A DNA stretch of 64,000 nt, from positions 11,710-75,709 of the forward strand of contig CAIWGV010000004.1 in NCBI GenBank assembly GCA_903912365.1. Reading direction: 5' to 3'. Under the pieces are notes generated by a model. The model was not told the origin of the DNA. It searched no databases and was given only the letters and a program-made list of their open reading frames with translations. Source of the stretch: an uncultured Alphaproteobacteria bacterium. Lineage in GTDB: Bacteria; Pseudomonadota; Alphaproteobacteria; UBA7879; UBA5542. The position numbers and the translations under genes are program-made. Of the stretch, positions 4,514-28,112 are shown piece after piece (within the stretch, counting starts at the first letter, position 1; the number at the start of each line of letters is the position of its first letter).

Positions 4514-5410
4514 TTATACGCTGGCTCTTAGGGAAAGTCGAACGGTTAATTGTGCGGCGAGCATCATAAACAGGGTGATGAGGCAGGGAATCACAAGGGT
4601 AATGGACCAAACGCTAAGGCTGGATAATAAATTTTCTAGAAGAGGGATGTGGAGATCTTGAATAAAAAATTGAAGACCTAAAATTGTAAGCCCCGAGAGA
4701 ATAAATCCGATGAAGCTGCCCTTCAATCCAATGCGAAAGGCATGCATCTGAAACTGTTTGGCAATATAGGCATCTGTGGCCCCGACCAAATGGAGAACCT
4801 CGATGATATTCCGATGGATGATGAGGCTGGTCTGGGATGTAAAAGCAACGGTCCCCACAGCTGCCAGAATAATCAGGGTCACGATAGCAAAACTTATGAC
4901 CTGGGCAGATCGAGCAAGGTCCAAAAAATTACTCTGCCAGGTCAAGTGATCTTCCACCACAATATGGGGAGAAATTGTATGGAGGGCTTGTCTCAGATGG
5001 GGCAAGCTGAAGACACGACGATTTTGAATTTCCACGTCTATCAGTTGAGGGAGAAAAGAGGTCTCCAGGGAAGATTCTTTTGGGACCCACGGATTCAAAA
5101 TTTCCAGAATCTCCTGGGAACTTAATATTTTCACAGTGCCCACCCCTGCGGTTCGATTGAGAGTGTGACGGACTTTAACCTCAATTTCTGTGTGAGCTGA
5201 AGAAGATTCCTTTTCAAAGAGACTCCCCGCCGGCACTTGAATGGTAATATGATCTTGAAATCCCCGATTCCAATGGTGAATCAAAGTGCTGACAGATAGG
5301 GCTATCATGAGAGAAAGGGTAGCTAAGTATCCCATTAGGGCAACAATCCAGGGTAAAAACCGACTGGAAGGATCGGCTTTTAGAGGAAGGTCTAAGTGAT
5401 GGGTTGTCAT
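4514..5410 (-). CDS. ftsX: Cell division permease FtsX
   Basis: Four-TM topology with a periplasmic domain. It is translationally coupled to ftsE (4-bp overlap). Confidence 0.8.
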   Translation of the reverse strand: MTTHHLDLPLKADPSSRFLPWIVALMGYLATLSLMIALSVSTLIHHWNRGFQDHITIQVPAGSLFEKESSSAHTEIEVKVRHTLNRTAGVGTVKILSSQEILEILNPWVPKESSLETSFLPQLIDVEIQNRRVFSLPHLRQALHTISPHIVVEDHLTWQSNFLDLARSAQVISFAIVTLIILAAVGTVAFTSQTSLIIHRNIIEVLHLVGATDAYIAKQFQMHAFRIGLKGSFIGFILSGLTILGLQFFIQDLHIPLLENLLSSLSVWSITLVIPCLITLFMMLAAQLTVRLSLRASV

Positions 5411-6126
5411 ACCAGGATCCCTTCCTTGATGAGAGTAGGCTCAGGCTCTAATAAAAAGGCCTGCCCCTTTTCCAAGAAAATTTCTGGGTACTTTAATTCC
5501 TGGGCTAAATTTCGATTGTGGGTAGCAAGGATAACGGTGGTGCCCTGCTTGTGCATTTCTTCAAAAAGATAGAGCAATTTCAGAGCTGTTTCATCATCCA
5601 CATTCCCCGTAGGTTCATCGGCTACTAAAAGCTTGGGGCGTCCGATGACGGCTCGGCTAATGGCGACACGCTGTTGTTCTCCGCCCGACAGGGTATGAGG
5701 AAGACTCTTCAAATGATCTTTTAGTCCCACCCAGTTCAGAAGTTCAGCGGCTTCTGCTTGGGCCTTTCGAGGGGACACACCCCTTACCTGCAAAGGAAGC
5801 GCCACATTATCTAGAACCGTAAGGTGGGGAATGAGGCGAAAATCTTGAAAAACAATCCCAATCTTTCGACGTAAAAAAGCGATATCTCGGAAAGAAATAC
5901 GGGCTGTGTTTGTATCAAAAAGAGAGATGGTCCCTGAGGATTGCTTGCACCCTAAGTAAATCATTTTAAGAAGGGTGGATTTTCCAGCACCGCTCACCCC
6001 TGTTAAAAAATAAAACCCTCCAGATTCGATGGTTAGATTTAATCCGGAAAACAACCGAACTCCATGCTCAAAAACAAGGGATACATTTTGAAAGTGGATG
6101 GCGTTCTTGGAAGGGATATCCTGCAT
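5407..6126 (-). CDS. ftsE: Cell division ATP-binding protein FtsE
   Basis: Walker A GVSGAGKST and the ABC signature LSGGEQQRVAISRA are present. It lies directly upstream of ftsX. Confidence 0.85.
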   Translation of the reverse strand: MQDIPSKNAIHFQNVSLVFEHGVRLFSGLNLTIESGGFYFLTGVSGAGKSTLLKMIYLGCKQSSGTISLFDTNTARISFRDIAFLRRKIGIVFQDFRLIPHLTVLDNVALPLQVRGVSPRKAQAEAAELLNWVGLKDHLKSLPHTLSGGEQQRVAISRAVIGRPKLLVADEPTGNVDDETALKLLYLFEEMHKQGTTVILATHNRNLAQELKYPEIFLEKGQAFLLEPEPTLIKEGILV

Positions 6127-6205
6127 TCTCTACCTTAGGGTTACAAGCCCATGATAAATCATTAAAGAGGTAAAAAAAAGGGTTATGGAGGGGGTGACCA
6201 GGGCC

Positions 6206-6547
6206 GACGCATCTAAAATGAAAACAAGATCGTCACCCTGAGCCCTCGAAGAGGGCGTCAGGGCCCCGCTTAGAGTCTCATATTTTTTGTAAAGCCTTCT
6301 GCTAGGCCATTTTTATGTTGATAAACACGCCCCATAAGATTTGAGGTTACGCCTACATATAGGGTGCCCTTATACCTACTGGCCATAATATAAACTACCG
6401 GGATCTTCTCCATAGGCGCATCTTAACAAAATATCCCCTTAGGCTGAAGATGACGAAAGCGGGGCCCTGACGCCCCCCTAAAGGGGGCTCAGGGTGACGA
6501 GTTCTTTGGCATCGCCCTCTTTGTCCCCCATAAAATTTAGATGCGTC
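6206..6547. repeat. MITE-like noncoding element with nested inverted repeats (copy 1, apparently complete)
   Basis: Three nested inverted-repeat pairs are present. Outer pair: GACGCATCTAAAAT at 6206-6219 and its reverse complement at 6533-6547. Middle pair: TCGTCACCCTGAGCCC at 6230-6245 and 6485-6500. Inner pair: GGGCGTCAGGGCCCCGC at 6253-6269 and 6459-6476. The ~300-bp core is about 95% identical to 19214-19514. The element sits in the divergent ftsE/alaS intergenic region. Confidence 0.6.
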
Positions 6548-6630
6548 AGCCCTGACACCCCGCAACAACCCCATTGCCTTTTGATGAGCCTACGGGTACA
6601 CTGAAGGCCTTCTTTTAGGGGAATATACAG

Positions 6631-9216
6631 ATGAATACGGCCCATATTCGAGAGTTATTTTTAAAGTTCTTTAAAGAAAAGGATCACACGGTTGTGCCTT
6701 CCAGTTCTTTGGTCCCCCATAAGGATCCTTCCCTTCTTTTTACAAACTCGGGCATGGTGCAATTCAAGAACTACTTCACGGGGCTTGAAAAGCCCGCTTA
6801 TAGCCGTGCCACCTCTGCCCAGAAATGTCTCCGCGCCGGGGGCAAGCATAACGATCTTGAGAATGTAGGCTATACGGCCCGCCACCATACCTTCTTTGAA
6901 ATGATGGGGAACTTTTCCTTTGGGGATTATTTCAAGGAAGAGGCCATCCATTTTGCCTGGGAGTTCCTCCACAAGACCATGGGGATTCCCCAAGAGAAGC
7001 TCTATATCACCGTGTTTTCGGAAGATGAAGAGGCGGCGACTCTCTGGAAAAAAATCGCAAACTTTCCGGATTCTAAAATTCTAAGAATTCCCACCACGGA
7101 CAATTTCTGGTCCATGGGGGATACGGGACCTTGTGGACCCTGTACAGAAATATTTTATGACCATGGAGACGCCATCTGGGGGGGCTTGCCGGGCACCAAA
7201 GACCAAGATGGTGATCGCTTTGTGGAAATCTGGAATTTGGTGTTTATGCAGTTTGAGCAGCTGGCCAATGGCAGCCGTATTGCCCTTCCCAAACCCTCCG
7301 TGGATACGGGCATGGGGCTGGAGCGCATGGCGGCGGTCATGCAGGGCGTTACCAACAATTACGATACGGATATTTTAAAGGCACTGGTTCTCGCCGCAGG
7401 GGAATTAACGCGCACGAAGCCAGCGGAACCCTATCTTGTATCCCAACGGGTTATTGCGGATCATGTTCGGGCCATGAGCTTCCTCATTGCTGAGGGTGTG
7501 TTGCCTTCCAATGAAGGGCGTGGGTATGTATTGCGACGCATCATGCGGCGGGCCATGCGCCATGTGCATCTCTTGGGAACAACAACCCCAACCCTTTATA
7601 AGATGGTTCCCCTTCTGGGGGAGAAAATGGGAAGTGCCTATCCAGAGCTGATGCGGGCCCAAGAACTTATTGAGGGAACCATTCGTCATGAGGAGGAACG
7701 GTTTTCTGAAACTCTGGGACGGGGCATCAAGATTTTGGAAGAGGAGCTTCGTACTCATGGGGGTGCTAAAACTTTCTCCGGCGATGTGGCTTTTAAACTT
7801 TATGACACCTACGGATTCCCCTTGGATTTGACCCAAGATATTCTGAAGGGGCAGGGCATTGAAGTGGATGTATCTCAGTTTGAATCAGCCCTCAAAATCC
7901 AAAAGGAAAAGGCTAGGGCCTCCTGGAAAGGGTCTGGCGACCAGACAGCCGGGGCTCTCTGGTTTGACGTGAAAGAAGAGGTAGGATCGTCTGAATTTCT
8001 TGGCTATCAAACGGAGGAGGCAGAAGGGCGTATTTTAAAGATTTTGAAAGACGGTTGGGCAATTGAAAAAGCAGGGGTAGGCGATGAGGTGCATCTAGTG
8101 TGCAGCCAAACACCTTTCTATGGGGAATCGGGAGGGCAAGCGGGCGACGCCGGCCTCATCCTGGGTCCCAAAGGGCGCGGCACCGTTGCGGATGCCCAAA
8201 AACAAGCAGGAGATCTCATCGTTCATGAAGTGGAGATTACGGAAGGATCTTTGTCCGTGGGCGACCCAGTGGAATTAAAAGTAGATAGGAACGGGCGACA
8301 GAAGCTGCGGGCCAACCATTCCGCCACCCATCTGCTCGGCGCTTCTTTACAGAATCACTTGGGCGCCTCTGTGGTTCAGAAAGGATCTCTCGTGGCGCCG
8401 GATCGCTTGCGATTCGATTTTAGCTCTAATCAGGCGGTTCCTAAAGATGTCCTGCGTCAAGTGGAGACAGAAGTGAATCACTGGATTCGGTCCAATGCGT
8501 CGGTGACAACAATTCTGACGACGCCAACCCAAGCCCTAGAGGGGGGCGCTCAGGGGCTGTTTGGAGAGAAGTACGGGGATGAGGTGCGGGTGGTCTCCAT
8601 GGGACCCTACTCTAAAGAGTTGTGTGGGGGAACCCACGTACAGCGTACGGGGGACATAGGGCTGTTTAAAATTCTCAGTGAGAGCAGCGTGTCGGCCGGT
8701 GTCCGTCGTATTGAGGCGGTGACGGGGCAGGCAGCAGAGGCTCATCTGAGAGAGTTGGAAGACGCTTTGCAACAGGCAGCGGAACTTTTAAAAACAAACC
8801 CAAAGGGGGTTCCGGCCCGTCTGACTCAGTGGATGGAAGAGCGGAAAAAGACCTCAAATAAAAACTCTATTTCCCTAGACCTATCTGTAGAGGAAATAAA
8901 CGGCGTTAAATTTGGAAGTCAAATTTTGGAAAATGTTCCGCCTCAAGATCTGAAGGAACTTATGGATCAAGGCAAAGCGAAGCTGGGGTCCGGCATCGTG
9001 TTGATTATTTCGTCTTTTGAGGGCAAGATTTCAGCCCTTGTAGGCGTAACTTCGGATTTGATGGGAACCCATGATGCGCGGGAGCTACTCAAACCCATGG
9101 CCGAAGTTCTCGGCGGTAAAGGGGGCGGTCGCCCGGACCTGACCCAGTGCGGCGGGACGGATGCGAGTAAGATTCCTGCGGCTATTGAGGCGATAAAGGA
9201 ATATCTGGCTTCTTAA
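6631..9216 (+). CDS. alaS: Alanine--tRNA ligase
   Basis: 861 aa. The class II AlaRS N-terminus (FTNSGMVQFK, GGKHNDLENVG), the editing domain (HSATHLL) and the C-terminal DHHA1 domain are all recognisable. Confidence 0.95.
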   Translation: MNTAHIRELFLKFFKEKDHTVVPSSSLVPHKDPSLLFTNSGMVQFKNYFTGLEKPAYSRATSAQKCLRAGGKHNDLENVGYTARHHTFFEMMGNFSFGDYFKEEAIHFAWEFLHKTMGIPQEKLYITVFSEDEEAATLWKKIANFPDSKILRIPTTDNFWSMGDTGPCGPCTEIFYDHGDAIWGGLPGTKDQDGDRFVEIWNLVFMQFEQLANGSRIALPKPSVDTGMGLERMAAVMQGVTNNYDTDILKALVLAAGELTRTKPAEPYLVSQRVIADHVRAMSFLIAEGVLPSNEGRGYVLRRIMRRAMRHVHLLGTTTPTLYKMVPLLGEKMGSAYPELMRAQELIEGTIRHEEERFSETLGRGIKILEEELRTHGGAKTFSGDVAFKLYDTYGFPLDLTQDILKGQGIEVDVSQFESALKIQKEKARASWKGSGDQTAGALWFDVKEEVGSSEFLGYQTEEAEGRILKILKDGWAIEKAGVGDEVHLVCSQTPFYGESGGQAGDAGLILGPKGRGTVADAQKQAGDLIVHEVEITEGSLSVGDPVELKVDRNGRQKLRANHSATHLLGASLQNHLGASVVQKGSLVAPDRLRFDFSSNQAVPKDVLRQVETEVNHWIRSNASVTTILTTPTQALEGGAQGLFGEKYGDEVRVVSMGPYSKELCGGTHVQRTGDIGLFKILSESSVSAGVRRIEAVTGQAAEAHLRELEDALQQAAELLKTNPKGVPARLTQWMEERKKTSNKNSISLDLSVEEINGVKFGSQILENVPPQDLKELMDQGKAKLGSGIVLIISSFEGKISALVGVTSDLMGTHDARELLKPMAEVLGGKGGGRPDLTQCGGTDASKIPAAIEAIKEYLAS

Positions 9217-12961: not shown

Positions 12962-15082
12962 ATGATTAAAAATATTTTATTTCTACTGATGATAGGTATA
13001 GGACTTGCTGAGGGGGCAGTTAGCGATCCTTGGGTTCAGCGCATGCGTGGAGATTCTTATTACAAAGGATTTGGGGACCCTCATATTTTACCGGCTCTAA
13101 AACAAATCCCTCCTGAACTCCGAGATTGGGTTGAGCACATAACCATTATTTCTGGTATAAAACTAAAAAAATTCATTAACTCAGAAGAAAGTTACGGCCT
13201 ACATCTGAGAAACTGTGAGGATTGGACAGCGACTTGTATCTCAGTTTTGAACTCTTTAAGAGATCTTCCCGGTTCTTCTCACTCCTGGATAACAGACATG
13301 ATAAAGGCTTATATCCCTGAGGATTGTCCTGCATTTCCTTGCCTTACAACCCTTCATACTTTAGTTAAGATCCCTGTTGAGTCTCAGCAATGGGTAGCTA
13401 GGATGGCGCAAACTTATAGAGATAAAGAAAATTCTCGTCTTCTAAATCAACTGAGAGAAACCCCCATAAATAGTCAAGAATGGGTGGAAGAAATGGCTCA
13501 GTTCCATATCAGAGAAAATTCTGATGCCGCTGCCTATGTATATCATTTAAGACAAGTTCCACCAAGATCTCAAGAATGGATGAAGCGCATGACTCAGCGT
13601 TACGTTAAAAGAGAATATAAGGAAAAGGATGCTCTGGGTATCCTAGAAGTTCTCCAAAAAACTCCTGCTGAATCTCAAGAATGGGTAGAACACATGGTCC
13701 AGACCTATATTAATGAGAGGTGTAGCGCACATAATAGGCATGATATTTTATGGAGTCTAAGCAAAGCTTCTCTTGAAGATAGAGGATGGATTGAGCAGAT
13801 GTCTCAACTCTATATTAAAGGAAGCGATAGCGGAGATGGTCGTGCTATGATTATATATTCCCTAGCACGCATTGAATCTGTTTCTCGGGAATGGGCTGCG
13901 CAAATTCTATCTTTTTTGATAGAATCAGACTGTGACAACACCTATTACACCACATCTAGAGATGGCCACAAGCGATATATAGGAAGTATTGGATGTCCAG
14001 CCTTCGTTATAAGCAAGCTGGAAGAATTATTATCGGATCTTCAATGCCAAGTTGATCTTTTGGAACCAGCACGTGCTCAAATAATGGCAGAATCTAACCA
14101 ATTTAGGGAAAGAAGCCCCTTAAAAGGGGAAGATATTGGAGATATTTTTCATCGAGTAAGTAGAGCTCTTGCCCAACAAGTTCGGATAAATCCAACAGGA
14201 GATAGACCTTTAGGACGCGCTCTTGAAGTCCACTTTGCAGCCTCTCTTCTCGTCCCTGCGGAAGAGAGGACCCAACCTCTTTATAGGGCTGTCGAAACTT
14301 ATATCAATAAGCTAGCTCTATCTCATCCAGTCCCTCTGGAAAGGGCGGTGTCTACACTCCAGGGTTGGGTAGACACATATGCGGATGAAGACAAAAAAGC
14401 TCTTTATCGTGAGACTGTTACAAAAGGGTACGGAGATGGAACAAACCCCGATTACAACCAGGAAATTACGCCTTTATTGCGATTTGTTGTCCCTTACATG
14501 GCAACGCTTCCTGAAACAGTTCTCAGGGCGTGGCTTCTGCCAGTCTTGCAGGAATCTGCAACGGCCTATGATGGAATGAGTCCCCTCAGTTGCGCCAAAG
14601 GGATCCAAGAAAGACTGACCATGTTGGGATTTAATGATTTGGAGGGAGTTGATCCCACTCTTCGGTCTCTCTCTCAATTCTCTCGAACCTTTGTGGGCAT
14701 TACAGACCGTGGCACACACGAGGCTGACACATGGGTGAGAGACGCTGTGGAATTTATAGGTCCAGAGGCAAGATTATTGATTCTGGGGCCAGAAAAACCT
14801 ACAGAAGAAATCTTCAAAGATTTGTTCCCGCCAGCCTTCCAAGCCCTTTCTAAAAGGGCGGGACTCAACCCCCTTTATGCCGACGCTCTTTTAAAAAATC
14901 AACGGATCCAAATGCACCTCAACATAAGCCTTGAGATGTACTACCAAGTGGATACGCATTACCAGACACTCCAGGAACAGGCGAGGGCCTTCCAAACCCA
15001 AGAAGAGAGACGAGAATTTCTAGCGACTGCAGGGACTCGACGTCTTGCGGCAGCAGAAATAAGGAGTCCTGAAGATATTTAG
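12962..15082 (+). CDS. Large secreted repeat protein, function unknown. Its C-terminal region is paralogous to the 23372-24883 product.
   Basis: A signal peptide follows the MIKNILFLLMIGIGLA start. It contains about 6-8 degenerate ~35-aa tandem repeats (xSQEWVxxMxQxY…). A C-terminal block (…PLSCAKGIQERLTMLG…DPTL) resembles the 23372-24883 product. Confidence 0.45.
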   Translation: MIKNILFLLMIGIGLAEGAVSDPWVQRMRGDSYYKGFGDPHILPALKQIPPELRDWVEHITIISGIKLKKFINSEESYGLHLRNCEDWTATCISVLNSLRDLPGSSHSWITDMIKAYIPEDCPAFPCLTTLHTLVKIPVESQQWVARMAQTYRDKENSRLLNQLRETPINSQEWVEEMAQFHIRENSDAAAYVYHLRQVPPRSQEWMKRMTQRYVKREYKEKDALGILEVLQKTPAESQEWVEHMVQTYINERCSAHNRHDILWSLSKASLEDRGWIEQMSQLYIKGSDSGDGRAMIIYSLARIESVSREWAAQILSFLIESDCDNTYYTTSRDGHKRYIGSIGCPAFVISKLEELLSDLQCQVDLLEPARAQIMAESNQFRERSPLKGEDIGDIFHRVSRALAQQVRINPTGDRPLGRALEVHFAASLLVPAEERTQPLYRAVETYINKLALSHPVPLERAVSTLQGWVDTYADEDKKALYRETVTKGYGDGTNPDYNQEITPLLRFVVPYMATLPETVLRAWLLPVLQESATAYDGMSPLSCAKGIQERLTMLGFNDLEGVDPTLRSLSQFSRTFVGITDRGTHEADTWVRDAVEFIGPEARLLILGPEKPTEEIFKDLFPPAFQALSKRAGLNPLYADALLKNQRIQMHLNISLEMYYQVDTHYQTLQEQARAFQTQEERREFLATAGTRRLAAAEIRSPEDI

Positions 15083-15981: not shown

Positions 15982-16968
15982 ATGAGATATTTACTTCCAA
16001 AGTCCTGGTCTAAGATTCTTTTTATTTCTTCAATTTGTATCGTTGTGTTTGTGGCCCTCGTTTTTATGAGGGCTTTCTTTTTGATGGACCTTTCCAAAGC
16101 GCCCCTTGAAAATCAAATTACGGCACCCGTTTACCTGATCTCGTACGCAGATGGTCCGGAAGTTTTCCACAAAAACCGAAAGATGCTTGTTTATTCAGGA
16201 TTGCAAAAAGGAGTCAGTCACTTTTTCAATTATAAGAAAGATATGATTGATCCCAAATTTTTAGAAAAACATAAAGACACCTTTTCTAAAAAGCATGGGG
16301 CAGGGTATTGGATCTGGAAGCCCTGGGTCATTCAAGATGCGCTGAAGAAAATTCCTGAAAACGCCTATGTATTTTATTGTGATAGCGGCTTTGTTTTTAA
16401 AGGGGATGTGAGCCCCATCCTAGATCTTCTCAAAACAAAGGACATGGTTCTTATGACCTATACGAATAAGGAACTCTATGGTCCCCTCAGTAAAACCACA
16501 AAGGAAGAAGCCTTTATAAAAACGGGATGTGATACCCAAGAATGCCGGAATTTTTATCTTCTGTGGGCGGGGATGATTTTCATGAAAAATACGCCTGCCA
16601 CCCGAAGCTTTATCCAGAAGTGGCTTACCTATTGTGAGGACCCCGAACTTTTGGGACCGGAATCAAAATATCTCCCCTCCCGTCATAACTATGATCAGTC
16701 CTTATTAGGGGTTGCCTATTACAAAAATCCCCAGCATATCGCTCTGGTTCCAGAAGAGGAGATTGCAGACAATAATATTTTTAGGTGGCATCATCGTCAC
16801 TCAAGTAGGGAGAGTGAAAGCCTTTTCTTTGATTATGAAAAGATCAGGGGTGTTGAGCGCCGAGTCATTAATAATGGCATTTTTAAAACCCTGGCCAAAT
16901 GGGTTTATAAGTTTTCAGAGAGCAAGCCTTCTGAGGGGCGCTCCCTTACGGTTATCTCAAGGGATTGA
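15982..16968 (+). CDS. Membrane-anchored protein of unknown function (tandem paralog 1)
   Basis: An N-terminal TM helix is present. The conserved blocks YLISYADGP, GAGYWIWKPW, YVFYCDSGF, MKNTPATRSFIQKWL and AKWVYKFSESKPS are shared with the next gene (about 60% identity). Confidence 0.45.
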   Translation: MRYLLPKSWSKILFISSICIVVFVALVFMRAFFLMDLSKAPLENQITAPVYLISYADGPEVFHKNRKMLVYSGLQKGVSHFFNYKKDMIDPKFLEKHKDTFSKKHGAGYWIWKPWVIQDALKKIPENAYVFYCDSGFVFKGDVSPILDLLKTKDMVLMTYTNKELYGPLSKTTKEEAFIKTGCDTQECRNFYLLWAGMIFMKNTPATRSFIQKWLTYCEDPELLGPESKYLPSRHNYDQSLLGVAYYKNPQHIALVPEEEIADNNIFRWHHRHSSRESESLFFDYEKIRGVERRVINNGIFKTLAKWVYKFSESKPSEGRSLTVISRD

Positions 16969-16976
16969 AATAATAA

Positions 16977-17954
16977 ATGAAGCGCCTATTTTTCAAATAT
17001 TGGGGTAAGACTCTATTAATTTTATCTATGGGAATTCTGGCATTTATTGCTTTTGTTTTTATACGACTGTTCTTTTTAATGGATCCGTCCGGAGCCCCCT
17101 TGGAGACAGATGAATTAAAGGAACCCCTGTATCTTATTTCCTATGCAGATGGGCCAGATGTTTTTCACAAAAATCAAAAAATACTAGCTTATTCGGCCCT
17201 AAGGAAAGGAGTTAGTCATTTTTTCAACTATAAGAAATATATGATTGATCCTGAGTTTTTGGAGAACCATAAAGAAACTTTTGCCCAAAAAAGTGGAGCA
17301 GGATATTGGTTGTGGAAGCCTTGGATCATTCAAGATGCCTTAAAGAAGATCCCAGAAAATGCCTATGTTTTTTATTGCGACAGCGGTTTTTTAGTTAAAG
17401 GGGATGTACGACCCATACTAAGTCTATTGAAGAAAAATGATATGGTTCTTGTTGCTTATACCAACAAGAAGATGTTTGGAACTTTAGGCCAAAATGTAAA
17501 AAAAGAAGCCCTGATAAAAATGCACTGTAATGAAGAGAAGTGCCAAGATTCTTTCATGATTTGGGCAGGAATGCTTTTCATGAAAAATACGCCTGCCACC
17601 CGGAGCTTTATCCAGAAGTGGCTTGCCTATTGTGAGGACCCAGACTTGCTATGGCCTCAAGGGAAAGACTCCAAGTCTCATCATCATTATGATCAGGCCC
17701 TCCTCAGTGTGACTTATTATAAAAATCCAAAGCATATTACCCTAGTGTCAGATGAAGATGTTTGTGACCATATTCTTAAATGGCATCACCGTCATCCGAA
17801 CGACGAATATACCCTATTTTTCCATAATGATAGAGTTAGGGGAGTGGAACGAGATCTTCTTCATACCAGGGTTTTCAAGACCATAGCCAAATGGGTTTAT
17901 AAGTTTTCAGAGAGCAAGCCTTCCAAAAGCCGTCCCCTTAAACCGGTTTTTTGA
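16977..17954 (+). CDS. Membrane-anchored protein of unknown function (tandem paralog 2)
   Basis: It is a paralog of 15982-16968 and starts 8 bp after that gene's stop. Confidence 0.45.
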   Translation: MKRLFFKYWGKTLLILSMGILAFIAFVFIRLFFLMDPSGAPLETDELKEPLYLISYADGPDVFHKNQKILAYSALRKGVSHFFNYKKYMIDPEFLENHKETFAQKSGAGYWLWKPWIIQDALKKIPENAYVFYCDSGFLVKGDVRPILSLLKKNDMVLVAYTNKKMFGTLGQNVKKEALIKMHCNEEKCQDSFMIWAGMLFMKNTPATRSFIQKWLAYCEDPDLLWPQGKDSKSHHHYDQALLSVTYYKNPKHITLVSDEDVCDHILKWHHRHPNDEYTLFFHNDRVRGVERDLLHTRVFKTIAKWVYKFSESKPSKSRPLKPVF

Positions 17955-19131
17955 GCAGCCCTGCTCTTAAGAAATAAAGGGTGAGGCCCAGGCAAATGGT
18001 TGTGATGGTCAACATGACCAGAGCGAGGGTGAATACTTCTCCATCATAAAGGTACCCAGCGATAGCCACGGTAATAGCAATGATAAGGGCGCGCATGCTC
18101 ATGATCACAGACGATGCAGTCCCTTTGATTTCAGGGAATATTTCCAAAGAAGGTCCAAAAATAATGGGGTAATAAATGGCTTCAGCAACGCCCCCTATGG
18201 TTACCAAAAGGGTGATCCAATAGGGAGAACGAGGGATAAAAAATCCCACCAAAGCAAGGCCTGCCATGCTCAGGACGTAAAAGATACTGCTGTAAATAAC
18301 ACAGGGTTTATTCCCAAATAGTTGAGAGAGGCGGTTTACAAAAAAACTGACGACAGAGAAAGTTCCCACAATGACTGCTTGATGGAGAGCATACTCAGTA
18401 ATGCTCATGCCAAAGGTTTCCATATAAAGGAATGGGGCGCAGGCAATAAAAGCAAGATAGGCCCCATACATGGCGCTGGGCACAAAAGAGGCGCTCAGAA
18501 ACAAGGGGCTTCTAAAAAGTTTTTTATAATCTCGGGTCATCTTGCGTGTATCGAAAACATCAAATTCTTTCTTCGTTTCAGGAAGAGAGATGAGGGACAT
18601 AACCCAAGAAATCAAACAGATAAAGGCCACAATGGCATAATTTCCCCGCCATCCCACAGCTTTGGTGATGAAGCTCCCAATGACAGGAGCGATGGCCATG
18701 AGGGTTGTGAGGATGGCGTTCATGAGGCCAATAAACTTCGTGGCCTTTTGTCCCTGGTAGATGTCAGCCACCATGGCAGAGACAAGAACCGCAGGGGTAG
18801 CAGCCCCTAACCCTTGAATGAAACGAGAGACTAATAAGAAAGGGATCGAGGGCGCATAAACACATCCCATGGCACCAAGGGTCAATAAAGTATTTCCAAT
18901 AATCATCACCTTCCGTCGTCCATAAGAATCTGACAGGGGGCCATAAAAAAAAGCAGCTATGAAAAAGCCCAGGAAGTTATAAGCCACTGTTAGCTGAATG
19001 ACTGCTTCTGTGGTGCCAAAATAACGAACCATTTCTGGAAAGCTGGGGACTGAGATATCAATCTCAATGCAACAGGGTACCAAAAAAAGAATCAGTAAAA
19101 AGGGCAGTATTTTTTCAATAGCATTATTCAT
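17938..19131 (-). CDS. MFS transporter, Bcr/CflA drug-resistance subfamily
   Basis: It has 12-TM MFS topology and the motif GPLSDSYGRRKV (MFS motif A). Confidence 0.7.
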   Translation of the reverse strand: MNNAIEKILPFLLILFLVPCCIEIDISVPSFPEMVRYFGTTEAVIQLTVAYNFLGFFIAAFFYGPLSDSYGRRKVMIIGNTLLTLGAMGCVYAPSIPFLLVSRFIQGLGAATPAVLVSAMVADIYQGQKATKFIGLMNAILTTLMAIAPVIGSFITKAVGWRGNYAIVAFICLISWVMSLISLPETKKEFDVFDTRKMTRDYKKLFRSPLFLSASFVPSAMYGAYLAFIACAPFLYMETFGMSITEYALHQAVIVGTFSVVSFFVNRLSQLFGNKPCVIYSSIFYVLSMAGLALVGFFIPRSPYWITLLVTIGGVAEAIYYPIIFGPSLEIFPEIKGTASSVIMSMRALIIAITVAIAGYLYDGEVFTLALVMLTITTICLGLTLYFLRAGLLKKPV

Positions 19132-19213
19132 GAAAGTTCCTTAAAAAGTTGTTGGGGGATTTGTAGGTATTTATAGCACGGAGAGGAAAAAGGATCAAGT
19201 GGGCCTAACCCTC

Positions 19214-19514
19214 TCGTCAGGGCCTCGCTTAGAGCCTCATATTTTTGTAAAGCCTTCTGCTAGGCCATTTTTATGTTGATAAACACGCCCCATAAGATTT
19301 GAGGTTACGCCTACATATAGGGTGCCCTTATACCTGCTGTCCATAATATAAACTACTGGGATCTTCTCCATAGGCGCATCTTAACAAAATAGCCCCTTAG
19401 GCTGAAGATGCCGAAAGCGGGGCCCTGACGCCCCCCCCCTAAAGGGGGCTCAGGGTGACGATTTCTTTGGCATCGCCCTCTTTGTCCCCCATAAAATTTA
19501 GATGCGTCAGCCCT
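19214..19514. repeat. MITE-like element, copy 2 (left end truncated)
   Basis: It is about 95% identical to the 6256-6553 core and keeps the right-hand middle and outer inverted repeats. CCTAACCCTCTCGTC flanks both sides (19205-19219 and 19513-19527), and the right flank overlaps the last codons of der. Confidence 0.6.
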
Positions 19515-20871
19515 AACCCTCTCGTCCCTCATCATAGGGATTCTTCCCCTTTCGCGGAATAAGTCTCAACGGGATGCCTCCCAACCGAAAATCTTCCGCC
19601 AGGCGATTTTTCAGATAGCGTAGATAGCTTTCAGGCAAATCCAAAGGTTTATTGATAAATAAAACAAAGGTGGGGGGGCGTGACTTGATCTGGGTCATGT
19701 ACCGAATCTTGATTCGGCGCCCGGAGACTAAGGGCGGCGGATGATGAGTGGTAGTGGCGATCAACCAGTCATTTAAAGGGGACGTGGAAATGCGCTTCTC
19801 CCAAAGGGGATAAAGCTCGAACAACTTCTCAAAAATCTTTCCCAGATCCTTCTTGTTCAAGGCAGATACCGCCACCACAGATGGATGCGGCAATTGGGCA
19901 AGCTCTTCGCCCAGTTTCAGGCGCATTTCTTTCAGAAAAGCATCCTTATTCTCAATCAAATCGATTTTATTGAAAACAAAAAGCAAAAGCCGACCTTCCT
20001 CCACCACTTGGCGCGCGAGGGTCAGATCTTGTTTTTCGAGAGGCATGGTGGCATCCACCACCAGAAGCACCGCTTGGGCGTACTGCATGGCGCGGGCCGT
20101 ATCCGCAGCGGACAAGCGCTCCACACTTTCTGTGATGCGGGCTTGCCTGCGCAGCCCTGCCGTATCGATGAGCTTGAGGGAGTGATCCTGCCAGGTAAAA
20201 TCTACCGCCAAGGATTCCCGGGTGAGTCCCGCAATGGGGCCCGTAAGAAACCTTTCTTTACCGACAATCTGGTTGATAAGGGTAGATTTTCCCACATTGG
20301 GACGCCCAATGACCGCGATGCTCAGGGGGGGGGATACAGAGTCTTCCGGTTCCTCATGGGGGAGGGCGTCATAGAAAGGCTGCAATGCTTCGTAGAGCAT
20401 ATTAAATCCCTCTCCATGCTCGGCAGAAATGGGGATGGGGGCCCCAAGTCCCAGAGAGGCTGCCTCAAAAACCGTGGAACGTGCCGCATTTCCTTCCGCT
20501 TTATTCACCAAAAAAATGCAAGGCTTGTTGAGTTTGCGCAGCAAACTCCCCAGGGCTTTATCTTGAAGAGTAATGCCTTCGCGCCCATCCACAATAAATA
20601 AAATCACATGGCATTCTTTCAGGGCTTCCTGAGTGTGATGCCAAAGCCCGTGGAGAATAAGTTCTTTGTCTTTTGGAATATAGGCGGTTTCAAGTCCAGG
20701 GGTATCCACCAGATCGAAGGAAAGATCCCCAATGGATCCTTTACCATAGCGGCGGTCTCGGGTAATGCCTGGTTCATCGTGAACAATGGCTAATTTTTTT
20801 CCCGCCAGACGATTGAAGAGGGTCGACTTCCCCACATTAGGTCGGCCCACCAAAGCTACGAGCAGAGACAT
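19513..20871 (-). CDS. der: Ribosome-associated GTPase Der/EngA
   Basis: Tandem G domains (GRPNVGKST twice) and a KH-like C-terminus are present. Confidence 0.9.
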   Translation of the reverse strand: MSLLVALVGRPNVGKSTLFNRLAGKKLAIVHDEPGITRDRRYGKGSIGDLSFDLVDTPGLETAYIPKDKELILHGLWHHTQEALKECHVILFIVDGREGITLQDKALGSLLRKLNKPCIFLVNKAEGNAARSTVFEAASLGLGAPIPISAEHGEGFNMLYEALQPFYDALPHEEPEDSVSPPLSIAVIGRPNVGKSTLINQIVGKERFLTGPIAGLTRESLAVDFTWQDHSLKLIDTAGLRRQARITESVERLSAADTARAMQYAQAVLLVVDATMPLEKQDLTLARQVVEEGRLLLFVFNKIDLIENKDAFLKEMRLKLGEELAQLPHPSVVAVSALNKKDLGKIFEKLFELYPLWEKRISTSPLNDWLIATTTHHPPPLVSGRRIKIRYMTQIKSRPPTFVLFINKPLDLPESYLRYLKNRLAEDFRLGGIPLRLIPRKGKNPYDEGREG

Positions 20872-24895: not shown

Positions 24896-25324
24896 TTAAA
24901 TAAACCACATCACATCCGTCCATTTTCCGGGATCCTTCTTTTTGGCCGCAAGTCGGGTTTTCCAATCCCCGCAATGAATCTCCAATTGATGGCCATCGGG
25001 ATCCAAAAAATAGAGAGATTTCCCGGGGGAGGAGTTGTTTTTATAAATTTTAGCCCCGGACATTTTTATTTTTTCAGAAAGGGCCTCAAAATCTTTCTCT
25101 GGCACGGAAAAAGCATAATGCGTGCTGTCGCATACTTTTTCTCGTCTTTCGTCTCGGTCTAAACAAAACCAAGTAGGATTGGGATCCTCTAGCTTTGCAA
25201 TCAAAAAGTAGGCACTCCCAGCCCACTTAACAAGAGGTGTGAATCCTAAAATGTCCCTGTAAAATTTAAAAGATCTTTCAATATCTTTAACGGCGACGGT
25301 GATGTGATTGAGAGCTGTAATCAT
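24896..25324 (-). CDS. FosA/FosX-family (VOC superfamily) fosfomycin-resistance-like metalloenzyme
   Basis: Residues I recall as FosA metal ligands line up: His7 (LNHITVAV), His in THYAFSV, and Glu in HQLEIH, plus FLDPDGH and ARLAAKKK. It is 142 aa. Confidence 0.6.
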   Translation of the reverse strand: MITALNHITVAVKDIERSFKFYRDILGFTPLVKWAGSAYFLIAKLEDPNPTWFCLDRDERREKVCDSTHYAFSVPEKDFEALSEKIKMSGAKIYKNNSSPGKSLYFLDPDGHQLEIHCGDWKTRLAAKKKDPGKWTDVMWFI

Positions 25325-25463
25325 TTGATAAATTTACTAGAAGCCATTCAGATAGGCAAGAAATGGAGGCAAATATCGCCAATCTTCAATTTAAAAGAGG
25401 ATCCCTGGTTAAACTCCCTGTTCCTTTTGAGGGTAACAGCCCGAACTGCCTTGAACAAAAAGG

Positions 25464-26216: not shown

Positions 26217-26423
26217 CGGCTCCCCCAAATTTTTTTATATAGGTTAATTCTACTTAATAACTCTAAAACTGTAAATTCTTTTGTGGGATTTCTCCTTTGG
26301 AGCCTATTCATCTTATGGGCAAAGTCGCCGTGCAAGCCTCATAAGGAGGCATTTCTACAGGCATATGATTGAGAGTTGTAATCATTTTCTAAATCTACTA
26401 AAGTCCTTTCAGAAACCCAAGAA

Positions 26424-28112
26424 ATGGAGATAAATATGAACGGGCCGATTTTTCTAATCCTTTTGATTGTATCTGTATTTTTCGAAACCTCCCATGGGGC
26501 TTCGGCGGCAGAAGAACAGGGGGACCTTCAGCGGTTTCAGAGAGAAGTTGTGGATAGGCAGTATGTGCCCATCTTTTCTGTGGCCGATTCTCGGGAACTG
26601 GATGTTATTACGAGAAATTTAGACTCTAAAGTCTGGCCCATTCTCCCCACGTCCCATCGATTTGAGCAAAGAGACAAGAAGTGGTGTATCACAAAGCATC
26701 GAGACGCGCCGGGAGCAGATTTGCATTTATATGCTTTTGGGGAAGATGCTCCCCAGAGTGTTAACTACGTGGTGCAGTCTTATGGGAGGACCACTTATAG
26801 TTATGCTCAGACTTTAAAAGATGACTGTAAGTTTTGTAAAAATAAAGTTCCCTTTGTCGTGGAACAAATTAGCTACATGGATGGGCACTGTATTGATCAC
26901 AGAGACACACGCCCTGAAAAGTTGGGAAACTATTATTGGCAAAATTCTTCTACTCATTCGACAAATCATATCCCTGAACCCCCTGGGAACTATTGGGGGC
27001 TAACTTGTAGAAATGCTTTGGTTAAAGACTTTAGAAAAAGGTTGGAGGGATACAGTCAGTGGGTTTTTTATCCCTCTAAACCACTTCTGACAACTAAAAA
27101 AATCCCCATTCCCATGGGAGTCCTTTTCATGCAACATGAAGCAGAGTCCTGGGAAATAATAAATGGATGGTCCATTCCTTGGGCAGATTCCCTGCACCGG
27201 TCCTCTGCAGATGAAGGACATTATCTAACTCAGCTGAGAAAATATACCCTAAATCATCACAGCCAGTCGGAAGCCCGGAAAGATCTTTTAGGTATAAGAG
27301 ATCGCTTTTTTCCGAAAACCTTTGTATATGAAAAAGGCCGATTGGATGAAAAGATTTTTGGAAGGGCGCTGAAGGTCCCGGAAACCCTGGATAATCCCTA
27401 CAGTCAATTCTCTCTCTATCGCATGGAAACCTTGGCTGACGAGGAAATCGTCCCTTCTTGGTCCCCCGCCACATTCGGGTTTTTTCTAGACCAGATGGAA
27501 CGGCACAAAGGCGACCCTTATTTTCGAGAGAAAACCGATTATTGGCAGAAACGGTTTACGAGCCGATCGGAATCTCTCCGTAAAAATGACTTCTCCAAAA
27601 TCATGGCCGGGGATGTGGCCATCGACACGCTCATTCAAAAGGTCCAAAGAGCGGAAAGTTTTGATGCGGATGATCGGGTGCAAGACCATCTGAGGCAGCT
27701 TAAATCTCATTCGGAAGTGAAACAAGAACCAGCGGCAGCTCCCCGGGTTGGTCCCTATGAGGATTACGAAAGACCAGTTGTTGTCGAGGTGGCCGCTGTA
27801 GCTCCTCAAGTCGAGCCTTCCCGTCCTCTAAAAATAACCTTTGGAACTGGAAAGGGTTCCCTTGAAACCTTAAAATCTCCTCTGCATGAGGACGAATTTC
27901 GGTTTCCCCGAAATCTTTCCTTGGAGATAACAGAGCGAGATCCTGGCTCTATTACAAGAAAGGTTAGCGCGTGGACTACGGCGAATAAAAGGATTTTAGA
28001 GGTGGCTTTAAGCAGGGGAACCATTACTGAATTTAGGATCGTAGGAAACATTTCTTCTGTTGCTCAAAAAGAGTTGAGGATTTTATTTGGTAGCAAATTT
28101 AAAGAAAACTAA
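26424..28112 (+). CDS. Hypothetical secreted protein (562 aa)
   Basis: The signal peptide is …PIFLILLIVSVFFETSHGASA. The start codon and first codons lie in an ~80-bp block duplicated from the fosA-like promoter and start region. Confidence 0.45.
   Translation: MEINMNGPIFLILLIVSVFFETSHGASAAEEQGDLQRFQREVVDRQYVPIFSVADSRELDVITRNLDSKVWPILPTSHRFEQRDKKWCITKHRDAPGADLHLYAFGEDAPQSVNYVVQSYGRTTYSYAQTLKDDCKFCKNKVPFVVEQISYMDGHCIDHRDTRPEKLGNYYWQNSSTHSTNHIPEPPGNYWGLTCRNALVKDFRKRLEGYSQWVFYPSKPLLTTKKIPIPMGVLFMQHEAESWEIINGWSIPWADSLHRSSADEGHYLTQLRKYTLNHHSQSEARKDLLGIRDRFFPKTFVYEKGRLDEKIFGRALKVPETLDNPYSQFSLYRMETLADEEIVPSWSPATFGFFLDQMERHKGDPYFREKTDYWQKRFTSRSESLRKNDFSKIMAGDVAIDTLIQKVQRAESFDADDRVQDHLRQLKSHSEVKQEPAAAPRVGPYEDYERPVVVEVAAVAPQVEPSRPLKITFGTGKGSLETLKSPLHEDEFRFPRNLSLEITERDPGSITRKVSAWTTANKRILEVALSRGTITEFRIVGNISSVAQKELRILFGSKFKEN

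Follow-up and report, generated by a model that had tools for sequence, protein, structure and literature searches.

Two palindromic repeats of an uncultured alphaproteobacterium as probable remnants of a non-autonomous ISAs1-type cassette with an Ssn nuclease-hairpin passenger

What is the palindrome that separates the divergent genes ftsE and alaS on contig CAIWGV010000004.1 of an uncultured alphaproteobacterium, and why does it occur twice? The 64-kb stretch of this contig that holds both copies is analysed here and is called the window. A first-pass annotation, made from the letters alone, had described a GC-rich, noncoding element with three nested inverted-repeat pairs, and had read it as a miniature inverted-repeat transposable element (MITE), as a selfish repeat like the Rickettsia palindromic elements or, alternatively, as a structured RNA. 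We find that the element is neither noncoding nor a new RNA; it is a decayed mobile element of a known kind. Both copies are probably dead-cargo derivatives of a ~500-bp non-autonomous cassette of the ISAs1 type, a MITE or mobile insertion cassette (MIC), whose passenger was an Ssn nuclease-hairpin module. This reading is carried by the ISAs1 identity of the ends, 10-bp target-site duplications, the remnant of a gene, its hairpins, a deletion shared by both copies, differing insertion sites and exchanged flanks. The earlier proposal of a MITE or non-autonomous selfish repeat is upheld by the ends, the 10-bp duplications and assembly breaks inside the element, which can now be assigned to ISAs1 among the families of insertion sequences (IS).

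Two copies and their ISAs1-family ends

The repeated element is real: copies 1 and 2 are 95.7% identical over 304 nt (the alignment reaches 19215-19517), and the similarity ends at the element edges, beyond which the flanks show no relatedness. A search of both strands found only these two copies in the window. The coordinates first given (6206-6547 and 19214-19514) had located the element and missed its true ends, which are those of the family terminus CAGGG...CCCTG (Table 1). All three inverted-repeat pairs are present (6199-6217/6536-6554, 95%; 6230-6245/6485-6500, 100%; 6243-6271/6457-6485, 86%), and what had been described as one nested series comprises two kinds of structure. In the outer pair we recognise the conserved terminal inverted repeat of the ISAs1 family, CAGGGCYGACGCATCTAAAWT; the other two belong to a pair of hairpins, the middle pair being their 5' halves and the inner pair their 3' halves. 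The supposed GC-richness holds mildly with respect to the immediate flanks (0.46-0.55 against 0.40-0.45) and does not set the element apart from the neighbouring genes, which span the same range.

A pattern built from the three outer ends in the window, GGGCYGACGCATCTAAAWT, was scanned over one genome per species and gave at least 118 matching stretches, against ~17 expected by chance according to our own estimate. The matches listed come from Verrucomicrobiota, Bacteroidota, Chloroflexota, Desulfovibrio, Kiritimatiellia, Acidobacteriota, Alphaproteobacteria, a Holosporaceae metagenome-assembled genome (MAG) and others, and many of them lie within ~100 nt of a contig end; ISAs1-type ends are present in Alphaproteobacteria and Holosporaceae MAGs (loci L004, L011 and L056). 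The two bases ahead of the pattern are kept as C (94%) and A (92%) at 119 sites among these matches and nothing is conserved further out, which places the terminus at CAGGGC... Tn3-type ends, suspected from the GGGG start, were ruled out, since conservation halts directly outside the CA that precedes GGGC and the linked transposases are of the ISAs1 family.

The 21-mer of the copy 1 ends also bounds ISAs1 transposase genes in two long two-ended elements, L036 (1169 bp) and L120 (1626 bp), each of which holds one open reading frame (ORF). That of L036 is an ISAs1-family transposase by NCBIfam NF033564 (E 1.8e-122) and by the Pfam domains DDE_Tnp_1_assoc and DDE_Tnp_1 (PF13808, PF01609). Among the matches listed, a tblastn match to ISAs1 adjoins the repeat directly on its inner side in 19/19 loci with such a match, no transposase is adjacent at 64 of the 74 end sites whose interior spans 400 nt or more, and the short two-ended elements (133-528 bp) have no ORF. 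Target duplications were surveyed at 20 two-ended elements from the scan; ten were perfect (seven of 10 bp, two of 9 bp and one of 11 bp) and a further three were of 10 bp with one mismatch, 10 bp being the commonest length. In the literature, ISAs1 inverted repeats are described as 14-22 bp long and beginning with CAGGG, with a 10-bp direct repeat (PMC11946415), and for ISArsp11 the inverted repeat is CAGGGCTGATGCAAAGTCG and the direct repeat is 10 bp long (PMC6305408). Inside the window element there is no transposase gene, its 356- and 298-bp copies holding only a GIY-YIG stump of 44-47 amino acids (aa).

We note that elements with ISAs1 ends and no transposase, most of them bearing 10-bp target duplications, recur across phyla within our survey (loci L004-L121; for instance L015 2396-2539, L057 3284-3464, L061 2194-2721 and L082), which indicates that they are common in many phyla. 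A literature search found no published account of ISAs1-derived MITEs or of their abundance across phyla.

Target-site duplications, which the first-pass annotation had suggested looking for, are found at copy 2 and at the related metagenome contig L127, and not at copy 1. A perfect 10-bp duplication encloses the L127 element (CAGGG...CCCTG); its sequence, GCTGGATTAG, takes in the rne stop codon. At copy 2 the terminal base has changed from G to A, which restores the TAG stop of der (19513-19515) and stretches the apparent repeat to 15 nt. The canonical G at this position would add Gln-Gly to der before a TGA inside the element, and both insertions with a target duplication fall exactly on a stop codon, that of der in the window and that of rne in L127 (~2837-2846). 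Copy 2 is without the left 59 nt, comprising the outer and middle left arms, and its junctions are identical in an independent assembly. Its left end may either represent use of an inner CAGGGCC as a pseudo-end or have arisen by deletion between two CGTCAGGGCC repeats. Before insertion, the target sites would have read GGGCCTAACCCTCTCGTCCC at der and ...GCTGCTGGATTAGATTACC at rne; exact-protein look-ups for the site between der and the major facilitator superfamily (MFS) gene returned, among contigs with DNA on file, only ones with the same insertion, and no empty orthologous site was recovered.

A gene remnant between paired hairpins

The element had been thought to contain no credible ORF. 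The minus-strand ORF of its core nevertheless matches the Pfam GIY-YIG profile above the curated cut-off (for copy 1, 33 bits against a cut-off of 22.6, and only at profile positions 3-41 of 78). The first 43 codons of the copy 1 ORF are homologous; a fused tail follows, ending at the original stop codon. A 149-bp deletion between two TCATATTTT repeats, common to both copies, removes nuclease residues 44-93, including the catalytic Glu; the window ORFs keep residues 1-43 only and, judged by this sequence, are as genes not functional Ssn members. An exact look-up of the 47-aa ORF returned no record. With the reconstructed full-length nuclease sequence as query, the search returned P0010, a 97-aa protein that is 94% identical to the query, together with more than 2,500 homologues of ~95 aa.

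P0010 matches PF01541 (E 4e-16), is 52% identical to the single SsnA homologue of a Neisseria gonorrhoeae chromosome, and retains every residue that is invariant in the family alignment, Y8, Y19 and E66 among them. By our own reading of the alignment, these three would correspond to Y6, Y17 and E64, which were mutated in SsnA (PMC11893778). The Ssn family (cd10448) was described by Chenal et al. (2025) as site-specific single-stranded DNA nucleases, which cut beside the hairpin and whose genes have an NTS/SRM-ssnA-NTS/SRM layout (PMC11893778). Intact 97-aa versions (P0010, P0131 and P0132) lie inside the same element in related metagenome contigs; the element is of full length in L127 and L124, L128 and L132 have a copy with 93% DNA identity and an intact ORF, and the copy in L122 is pseudogenised. 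Coverage of the region by a gene in relatives, which the first-pass annotation had named as a refutation of its reading, is half borne out, the core being colinear with the intact 97-aa gene. Between the ORFs of L124 and L128 we count 6 synonymous (~59 sites) and 8 non-synonymous differences (~232 sites), a ratio of non-synonymous to synonymous rates (dN/dS) of roughly 0.34, which may be taken as weak evidence of constraint on the intact form. Many close Ssn-type homologues (P0001-P0009, loci L122 and L123) are truncated, frameshifted or interrupted by in-frame stops (40-77 aa), which suggests that genes of this type decay often.

The two hairpins that bracket the gene lie in the arms of the element, which are 73 nt (left) and 98 nt (right) long and homologous over their full length apart from a 25-nt indel. 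Each arm can also fold alone, into an unpaired TCGTCA head, a GC-rich 12-bp stem with one bulge, a loop of 3-5 nt and an unpaired CCCCGCTT tail. The left hairpin, with a GAA loop, has a DNA fold of -12.1 kcal/mol (z = -3.2), the right hairpin one of -13.9 kcal/mol (z = -3.8), and there is a compensated pair between the stems (GCCCCC/GGGGGG on the right, GCCCTC/GAGGGC on the left). The right hairpin of copy 2 is weaker than those of copy 1, and 13 of 200 shuffles were at least as stable.

This arrangement is seen elsewhere in the family. Lineage-specific hairpins bracket GIY-YIG family members at L123, L136 and L137, and a strict hairpin test was passed at 23 of 34 IMG/VR loci of the family, an enrichment of about 12-fold relative to the outer flanks. 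At these loci, a near-versus-far comparison, used as control, gave a hairpin density of ~2.6 per kb near the gene and 0.44 per kb more than 300 nt away. The N. gonorrhoeae homologue sits in a dRS3/NTS hairpin cluster, 16 of the 19 dRS3 motifs of 40 kb lying within ~900 bp of the gene. We initially took CGTC hairpins flanking small GIY-YIG genes to be new, and have withdrawn that view because they are already published as features of the Ssn family (PMC11893778).

Motifs of the hairpins and of the transposon ends echo one another. GGGGGnGTCAGGGCC occurs four times in copy 1, and so does GGGGG(N)GTCAGGGCC(N)CGC, at both outer junctions including the flanks (6190-6198 and 6555-6561) and in both inner hairpin halves (6253-6269 and 6459-6476). 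The hairpin head CGTCA recurs in reverse complement, as TGACG, in the ISAs1 end, and CAGGG/CCCTG also occurs inside the stems. These echoes may mean that the element inserted where a hairpin already stood, or that hairpin and transposon end evolved together; alternatively, the Ssn nuclease could act on the single-stranded ends of the transposon.

Table 1. Features of the two window copies, and flank pairings of the element in the window and in related contigs
Feature	Position	Strand	Remarks
Copy 1, internally deleted ISAs1-ended cassette, 356 bp	6199..6554		bounds at family terminus CAGGG...CCCTG
Left terminal inverted repeat, copy 1, CAGGGCCGACGCATCTAAAAT	6199..6219	+	ISAs1-type; matches end pattern of genome scan
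Right terminal inverted repeat, copy 1	6534..6554	-	reverse complement CAGGGCTGACGCATCTAAATT
Left flank of copy 1, GGGGGTGAC	6190..6198		with 6555-6561 (ACACCCC), prolongs inverted repeat past element end
Left CGTC-headed hairpin	6230..6271	+	just 3' of nuclease stop codon, head outward
Truncated ssn-like GIY-YIG ORF, copy 1, 47 aa	6270..6413	-	PF01541, E 7.8e-8
Junction of 149-bp internal deletion, copy 1	6278..6286		at short direct repeat TCATATTTT; from alignment with L124, L127, L128 and L122
5' leader of nuclease gene	6414..6456	-	conserved with full-length copies
Right CGTC-headed hairpin	6457..6500	-	upstream of nuclease gene, head outward
Copy 2, 298 bp	19218..19515		bounds at family terminus CAGGG...CCCTG
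Left copy of 10-bp target-site duplication, copy 2, ACCCTCTCGT	19208..19217		within 15-nt direct repeat 19204-19218
Left end of copy 2, CAGGGCCTCGCTTA	19218..19231	+	3' half of left hairpin; abuts target duplication
Same deletion junction, copy 2	19236-19244
Truncated GIY-YIG ORF, copy 2, 44 aa	19237..19371	-	PF01541, E 4e-7
Right CGTC-headed hairpin, copy 2	19415..19461	-	-13.2 kcal/mol, z = -1.9
Right terminal inverted repeat, copy 2	19495..19515	-	terminal base mutated, CCCTG to CCCTA
Right copy of target-site duplication, copy 2, ACCCTCTCGT	19516..19525		encodes last codons of der
ftsE, divergent neighbour of copy 1	5407..6126	-
alaS, divergent neighbour of copy 1	6631..9216	+
MFS transporter gene, neighbour of copy 2	17938..19131	-
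der, neighbour of copy 2	19513..20871	-
Flanks ftsE and alaS	window		element 356 bp
Flanks rne and PCMT	L127		element 492 bp; with target duplication
Flanks rne and alaS	L124		element 505 bp
Flanks ftsE and PCMT	52,860-bp contig of ERZ1426828		element ~344 bp, inferred from 499-nt gap

Proposed mobilisation and rival explanations

Related contigs hold the element at other insertion sites, between rne and PCMT in L127 and at further sites in L122 and L128, and five contigs of independent assemblies end inside it. Samples ERZ1426828, ERR4193932, ERZ18638863 and ERZ27313292 are among those in which the source organism is present. In L124, the left part carries the variants of L127 and the right part those of copy 1. 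Sizes and variants in the four flank pairings around two copies (Table 1) fit one reciprocal crossover between inverted copies, that is, an inversion, and we infer that the flank swaps are real inversions, although artificial joins made by metagenome assemblers could look alike. On that reading the element marks a recombination hot spot, with rearrangement breakpoints between closely related metagenome strains.

The outermost 21 bp on each side of the cassette are ISAs1-family terminal inverted repeats around a hairpin-ssn-hairpin interior, in which a minus-strand, single-domain GIY-YIG gene lies between two inverted CGTC-headed hairpins. In the window, the 149-bp deletion at the short direct repeats has removed the C-terminal half of the nuclease and left only the DNA shell. 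The cassette encodes no transposase; in the mechanism that we propose, an ISAs1 DDE transposase whose gene lies elsewhere would cut and paste it in trans, recognising the CAGGG... ends and leaving the 10-bp target duplication. From the ends and duplications, such mobilisation in trans is probable. The deleted form itself appears to have spread, as its copies share the deletion junction yet have different flanks. Dispersed copies could in turn act as substrates for homologous recombination, through which flanks would be exchanged between strains.

Several observations weigh against this reading. ISAs1 transposase had no tblastn match in the 64-kb window, in line with the earlier statement that the window lacks a transposase (which holds for the ISAs1 type, the sole type looked for), and none was found in the retrieved contigs of this lineage, which makes the partner acting in trans hypothetical. 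The flanking repeat of copy 2 is 15 nt rather than 10 nt long and its left end is non-canonical, copy 1 has no direct target duplication and flanks that instead prolong the inverted repeat by 7-9 nt, and the left repeat of L127 is damaged (CAGGGCC--CACATC). All relatives are metagenome assemblies, which are prone to mis-joins at repeats. The known copy number is low, with ~3-5 sites in the lineage, and a scan of JGI metagenomes with the arm AAGCGGGGCCCTGACGCCC gave 7 loci, all of them unrelated except L132 and a solo arm remnant in L130; viral contigs gave 0 matches to this arm. Finally, the published SRM motif HGTCWYN(0-2)YYVSBRHN(0-5)WNVSBRGN(0-2)RNCYNB has 0 matches in the window, L122, L124, L127 and L128, and we therefore call the hairpins SRM-like rather than SRM. 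As positive controls, the motif matches twice in L123 and 11 times at the N. gonorrhoeae locus.

Two side observations touch these searches. The remnant in L130 (1781-1822) is a solo arm of 40 nt, AAGCGGGGCCCTGACGCCCTCTTCGAGGGCTCATGGTGAC, with no ISAs1 end and no nuclease gene. In L136 (739-786, 1114-1163) and L137 (2919-2963, 3287-3331), long inverted repeats of unrelated sequence flank Ssn homologues with 60-66% identity to the parent gene; the SRM motif misses these repeats and hence under-detects hairpin diversity.

Could the cassette be moved by its own GIY-YIG (Ssn) nuclease through the flanking hairpins, in a RAYT/REPIN-like or homing-like manner, with the ISAs1-like ends being incidental? 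The hairpin-ssn-hairpin layout is IS-like, and its describers discuss a possible domesticated mobile element (PMC11893778); most homologues of the nuclease are flanked by hairpins, and its ORF has stayed intact between diverged copies, with the dN/dS given above. However, the 10-bp duplications abut the CAGGG/CCCTG termini exactly and outside the hairpins, which is the ISAs1 signature, and the form that spread in the window genome is without the catalytic half of the nuclease. Nor are there dispersed solo hairpins in the window, where GTCAGGGC occurs once beyond the two copies and the SRM motif is absent, and Ssn has been characterised as a single-stranded DNA nuclease, not a transposase (PMC11893778). 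We regard mobility driven by the nuclease as quite improbable. Still less probable is a two-copy gene for a structured noncoding RNA of ~300 nt. The very long hairpin predicted at the outset is confirmed by folding of both strands (-164.6 and -186.5 kcal/mol; z = -9.1 and -10.0), no shuffled control folding as stably on either strand, and the intergenic location would suit an RNA gene. Against this, the fold is equally good on either strand, which is the behaviour of a DNA palindrome, Rfam gave no match at the gathering threshold and one chance-level match only at E<5, and a search of the element found no convincing promoter or terminator. The unpaired core is, moreover, a decayed protein-coding gene colinear with the intact gene of relatives, and the copies differ in context and bear target duplications. 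The least credible account, to which we give hardly any weight, is an immobile product of simple segmental duplication or a chance palindrome. The presence of just two copies in the window would suit it, but their flanks are unrelated and not shared as a single duplication would have them, copies occupy other loci in relatives (between rne and PCMT, and in L122 and L128), and the element has a perfect 10-bp duplication in L127 and ends identical to a widespread IS terminus.

Compatible with a transposase-mobilised cassette is the further idea that copy 1, situated between divergent ftsE and alaS as first annotated, might have been co-opted as a promoter, terminator or attenuator for these genes. 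It occupies 356 of the 504 bp between their start codons, and its right arm together with a 76-nt leader also precedes alaS in L124, which has rne on the other side; the alaS promoter must accordingly be contained in this 76-nt leader or in the element itself. However, no outward-facing sigma-70-like site was found, the only match lying inside the nuclease ORF with a count not above that of shuffles, and nothing sets copy 1 apart from copy 2. Co-option seems unlikely.

The window also holds other repeats. Adjacent stretches of ~1 kb (16112-17409 and 16821-17940) are 71-77% identical and represent tandem paralogous genes, one of which is a 325-aa ORF (16977..17954). A 75-nt repeat with 81% identity (25302-25376 and 26363-26437, 1,061 bp apart) and three 36-nt repeats at spacings of 105-201 bp (13474-13815) are probably paralogous or internally repetitive coding sequence. 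We also note that PLSDB files 2.17-Mb N. gonorrhoeae chromosomes (NZ_CP119140.1 and NZ_CP119142.1) and several chromosomes of Sinorhizobium, Aeromonas and Shinella as plasmids.

Comparison with known systems

MITEs, MICs, ISAs1 and the Ssn module are each already known; our literature search found no description of an ssn module enclosed by ISAs1 ends with a 10-bp duplication, and no paper describing an ISAs1-derived MITE with cargo. An anonymous palindrome, which annotation pipelines would otherwise leave blank or fill with spurious ORFs of 44-60 aa, here becomes an annotated object in which ISAs1 ends enclose two SRM-like hairpins and an ssn pseudogene, and the Ssn nuclease-hairpin module can ride as passenger in a classical DDE-transposon shell. 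How Ssn modules spread was left open by the 2025 paper (PMC11893778). That ISAs1-ended cassettes are a vehicle moving such modules within and between genomes is a tentative idea, which we hold to be doubtful; were it true, the 10-bp duplication around the intact module in L127 would be the first direct footprint of ssn-module transposition.

The interior of the cassette resembles the NTS/SRM-ssnA modules in having a single-domain GIY-YIG protein of ~95 aa between inverted CGTC-headed hairpins (PMC11893778). It differs from them in that its hairpins are longer (12-bp stem, CGTCAC head) and fall outside the SRM motif, in that ISAs1 ends and a target duplication, which do not figure in PMC11893778, enclose the module, in the truncation of the gene in the window, and in the lack of a dispersed hairpin population there. 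The CGTC-tagged repetitive extragenic palindromes (REPs), including RPE-4 and RPE-6 of Rickettsia, are 20-40 bp long, number tens to hundreds per genome, and have an AT stem start and a CCA tail; in the words of Di Nocera et al. (2013), they 'lack a dedicated transposase' (PMC3733652). The inner hairpins share with them a CGTC head, a GC-rich stem, a short loop, an unpaired tail and the arrangement as an inverted pair, whereas those of the cassette have a stem beginning with CC, a CCCCGC tail and a length of ~42 nt, and were seen in the cassette alone. The likeness to Rickettsia palindromic elements claimed earlier accordingly applies to the inner hairpins alone, in their head and layout, and fails for the AT stem start and the CCA tail. 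REPIN/RAYT systems, too, combine a nuclease gene between cognate inverted hairpins with an element that folds into a long hairpin; here, by contrast, the nuclease is of the GIY-YIG type rather than an HUH tyrosine transposase, the GTAG tag is absent, and the mobility signature is that of a DDE transposase.

As to the shell, its CAGGG-starting ends match those of ISAs1-family ISs at 21/21 allowed positions, and the 10-bp duplication and differing loci are likewise as in that family. Unlike such an IS, however, the cassette lacks a transposase gene, has an unrelated interior with a nuclease module in its place, and has arms of 73 and 98 nt in contrast to repeats of 14-22 bp. MICs are exemplified by MIC231 of the Bacillus cereus group. 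The concept, cited in PMC4133298, is matched by the cassette in its IS-type ends around a passenger gene, its lack of a transposase and its presumed mobilisation in trans, with the difference that the ends are of ISAs1 rather than IS231/IS4 and that an Ssn nuclease together with its hairpins forms the passenger, whose function has been lost in the window copies.

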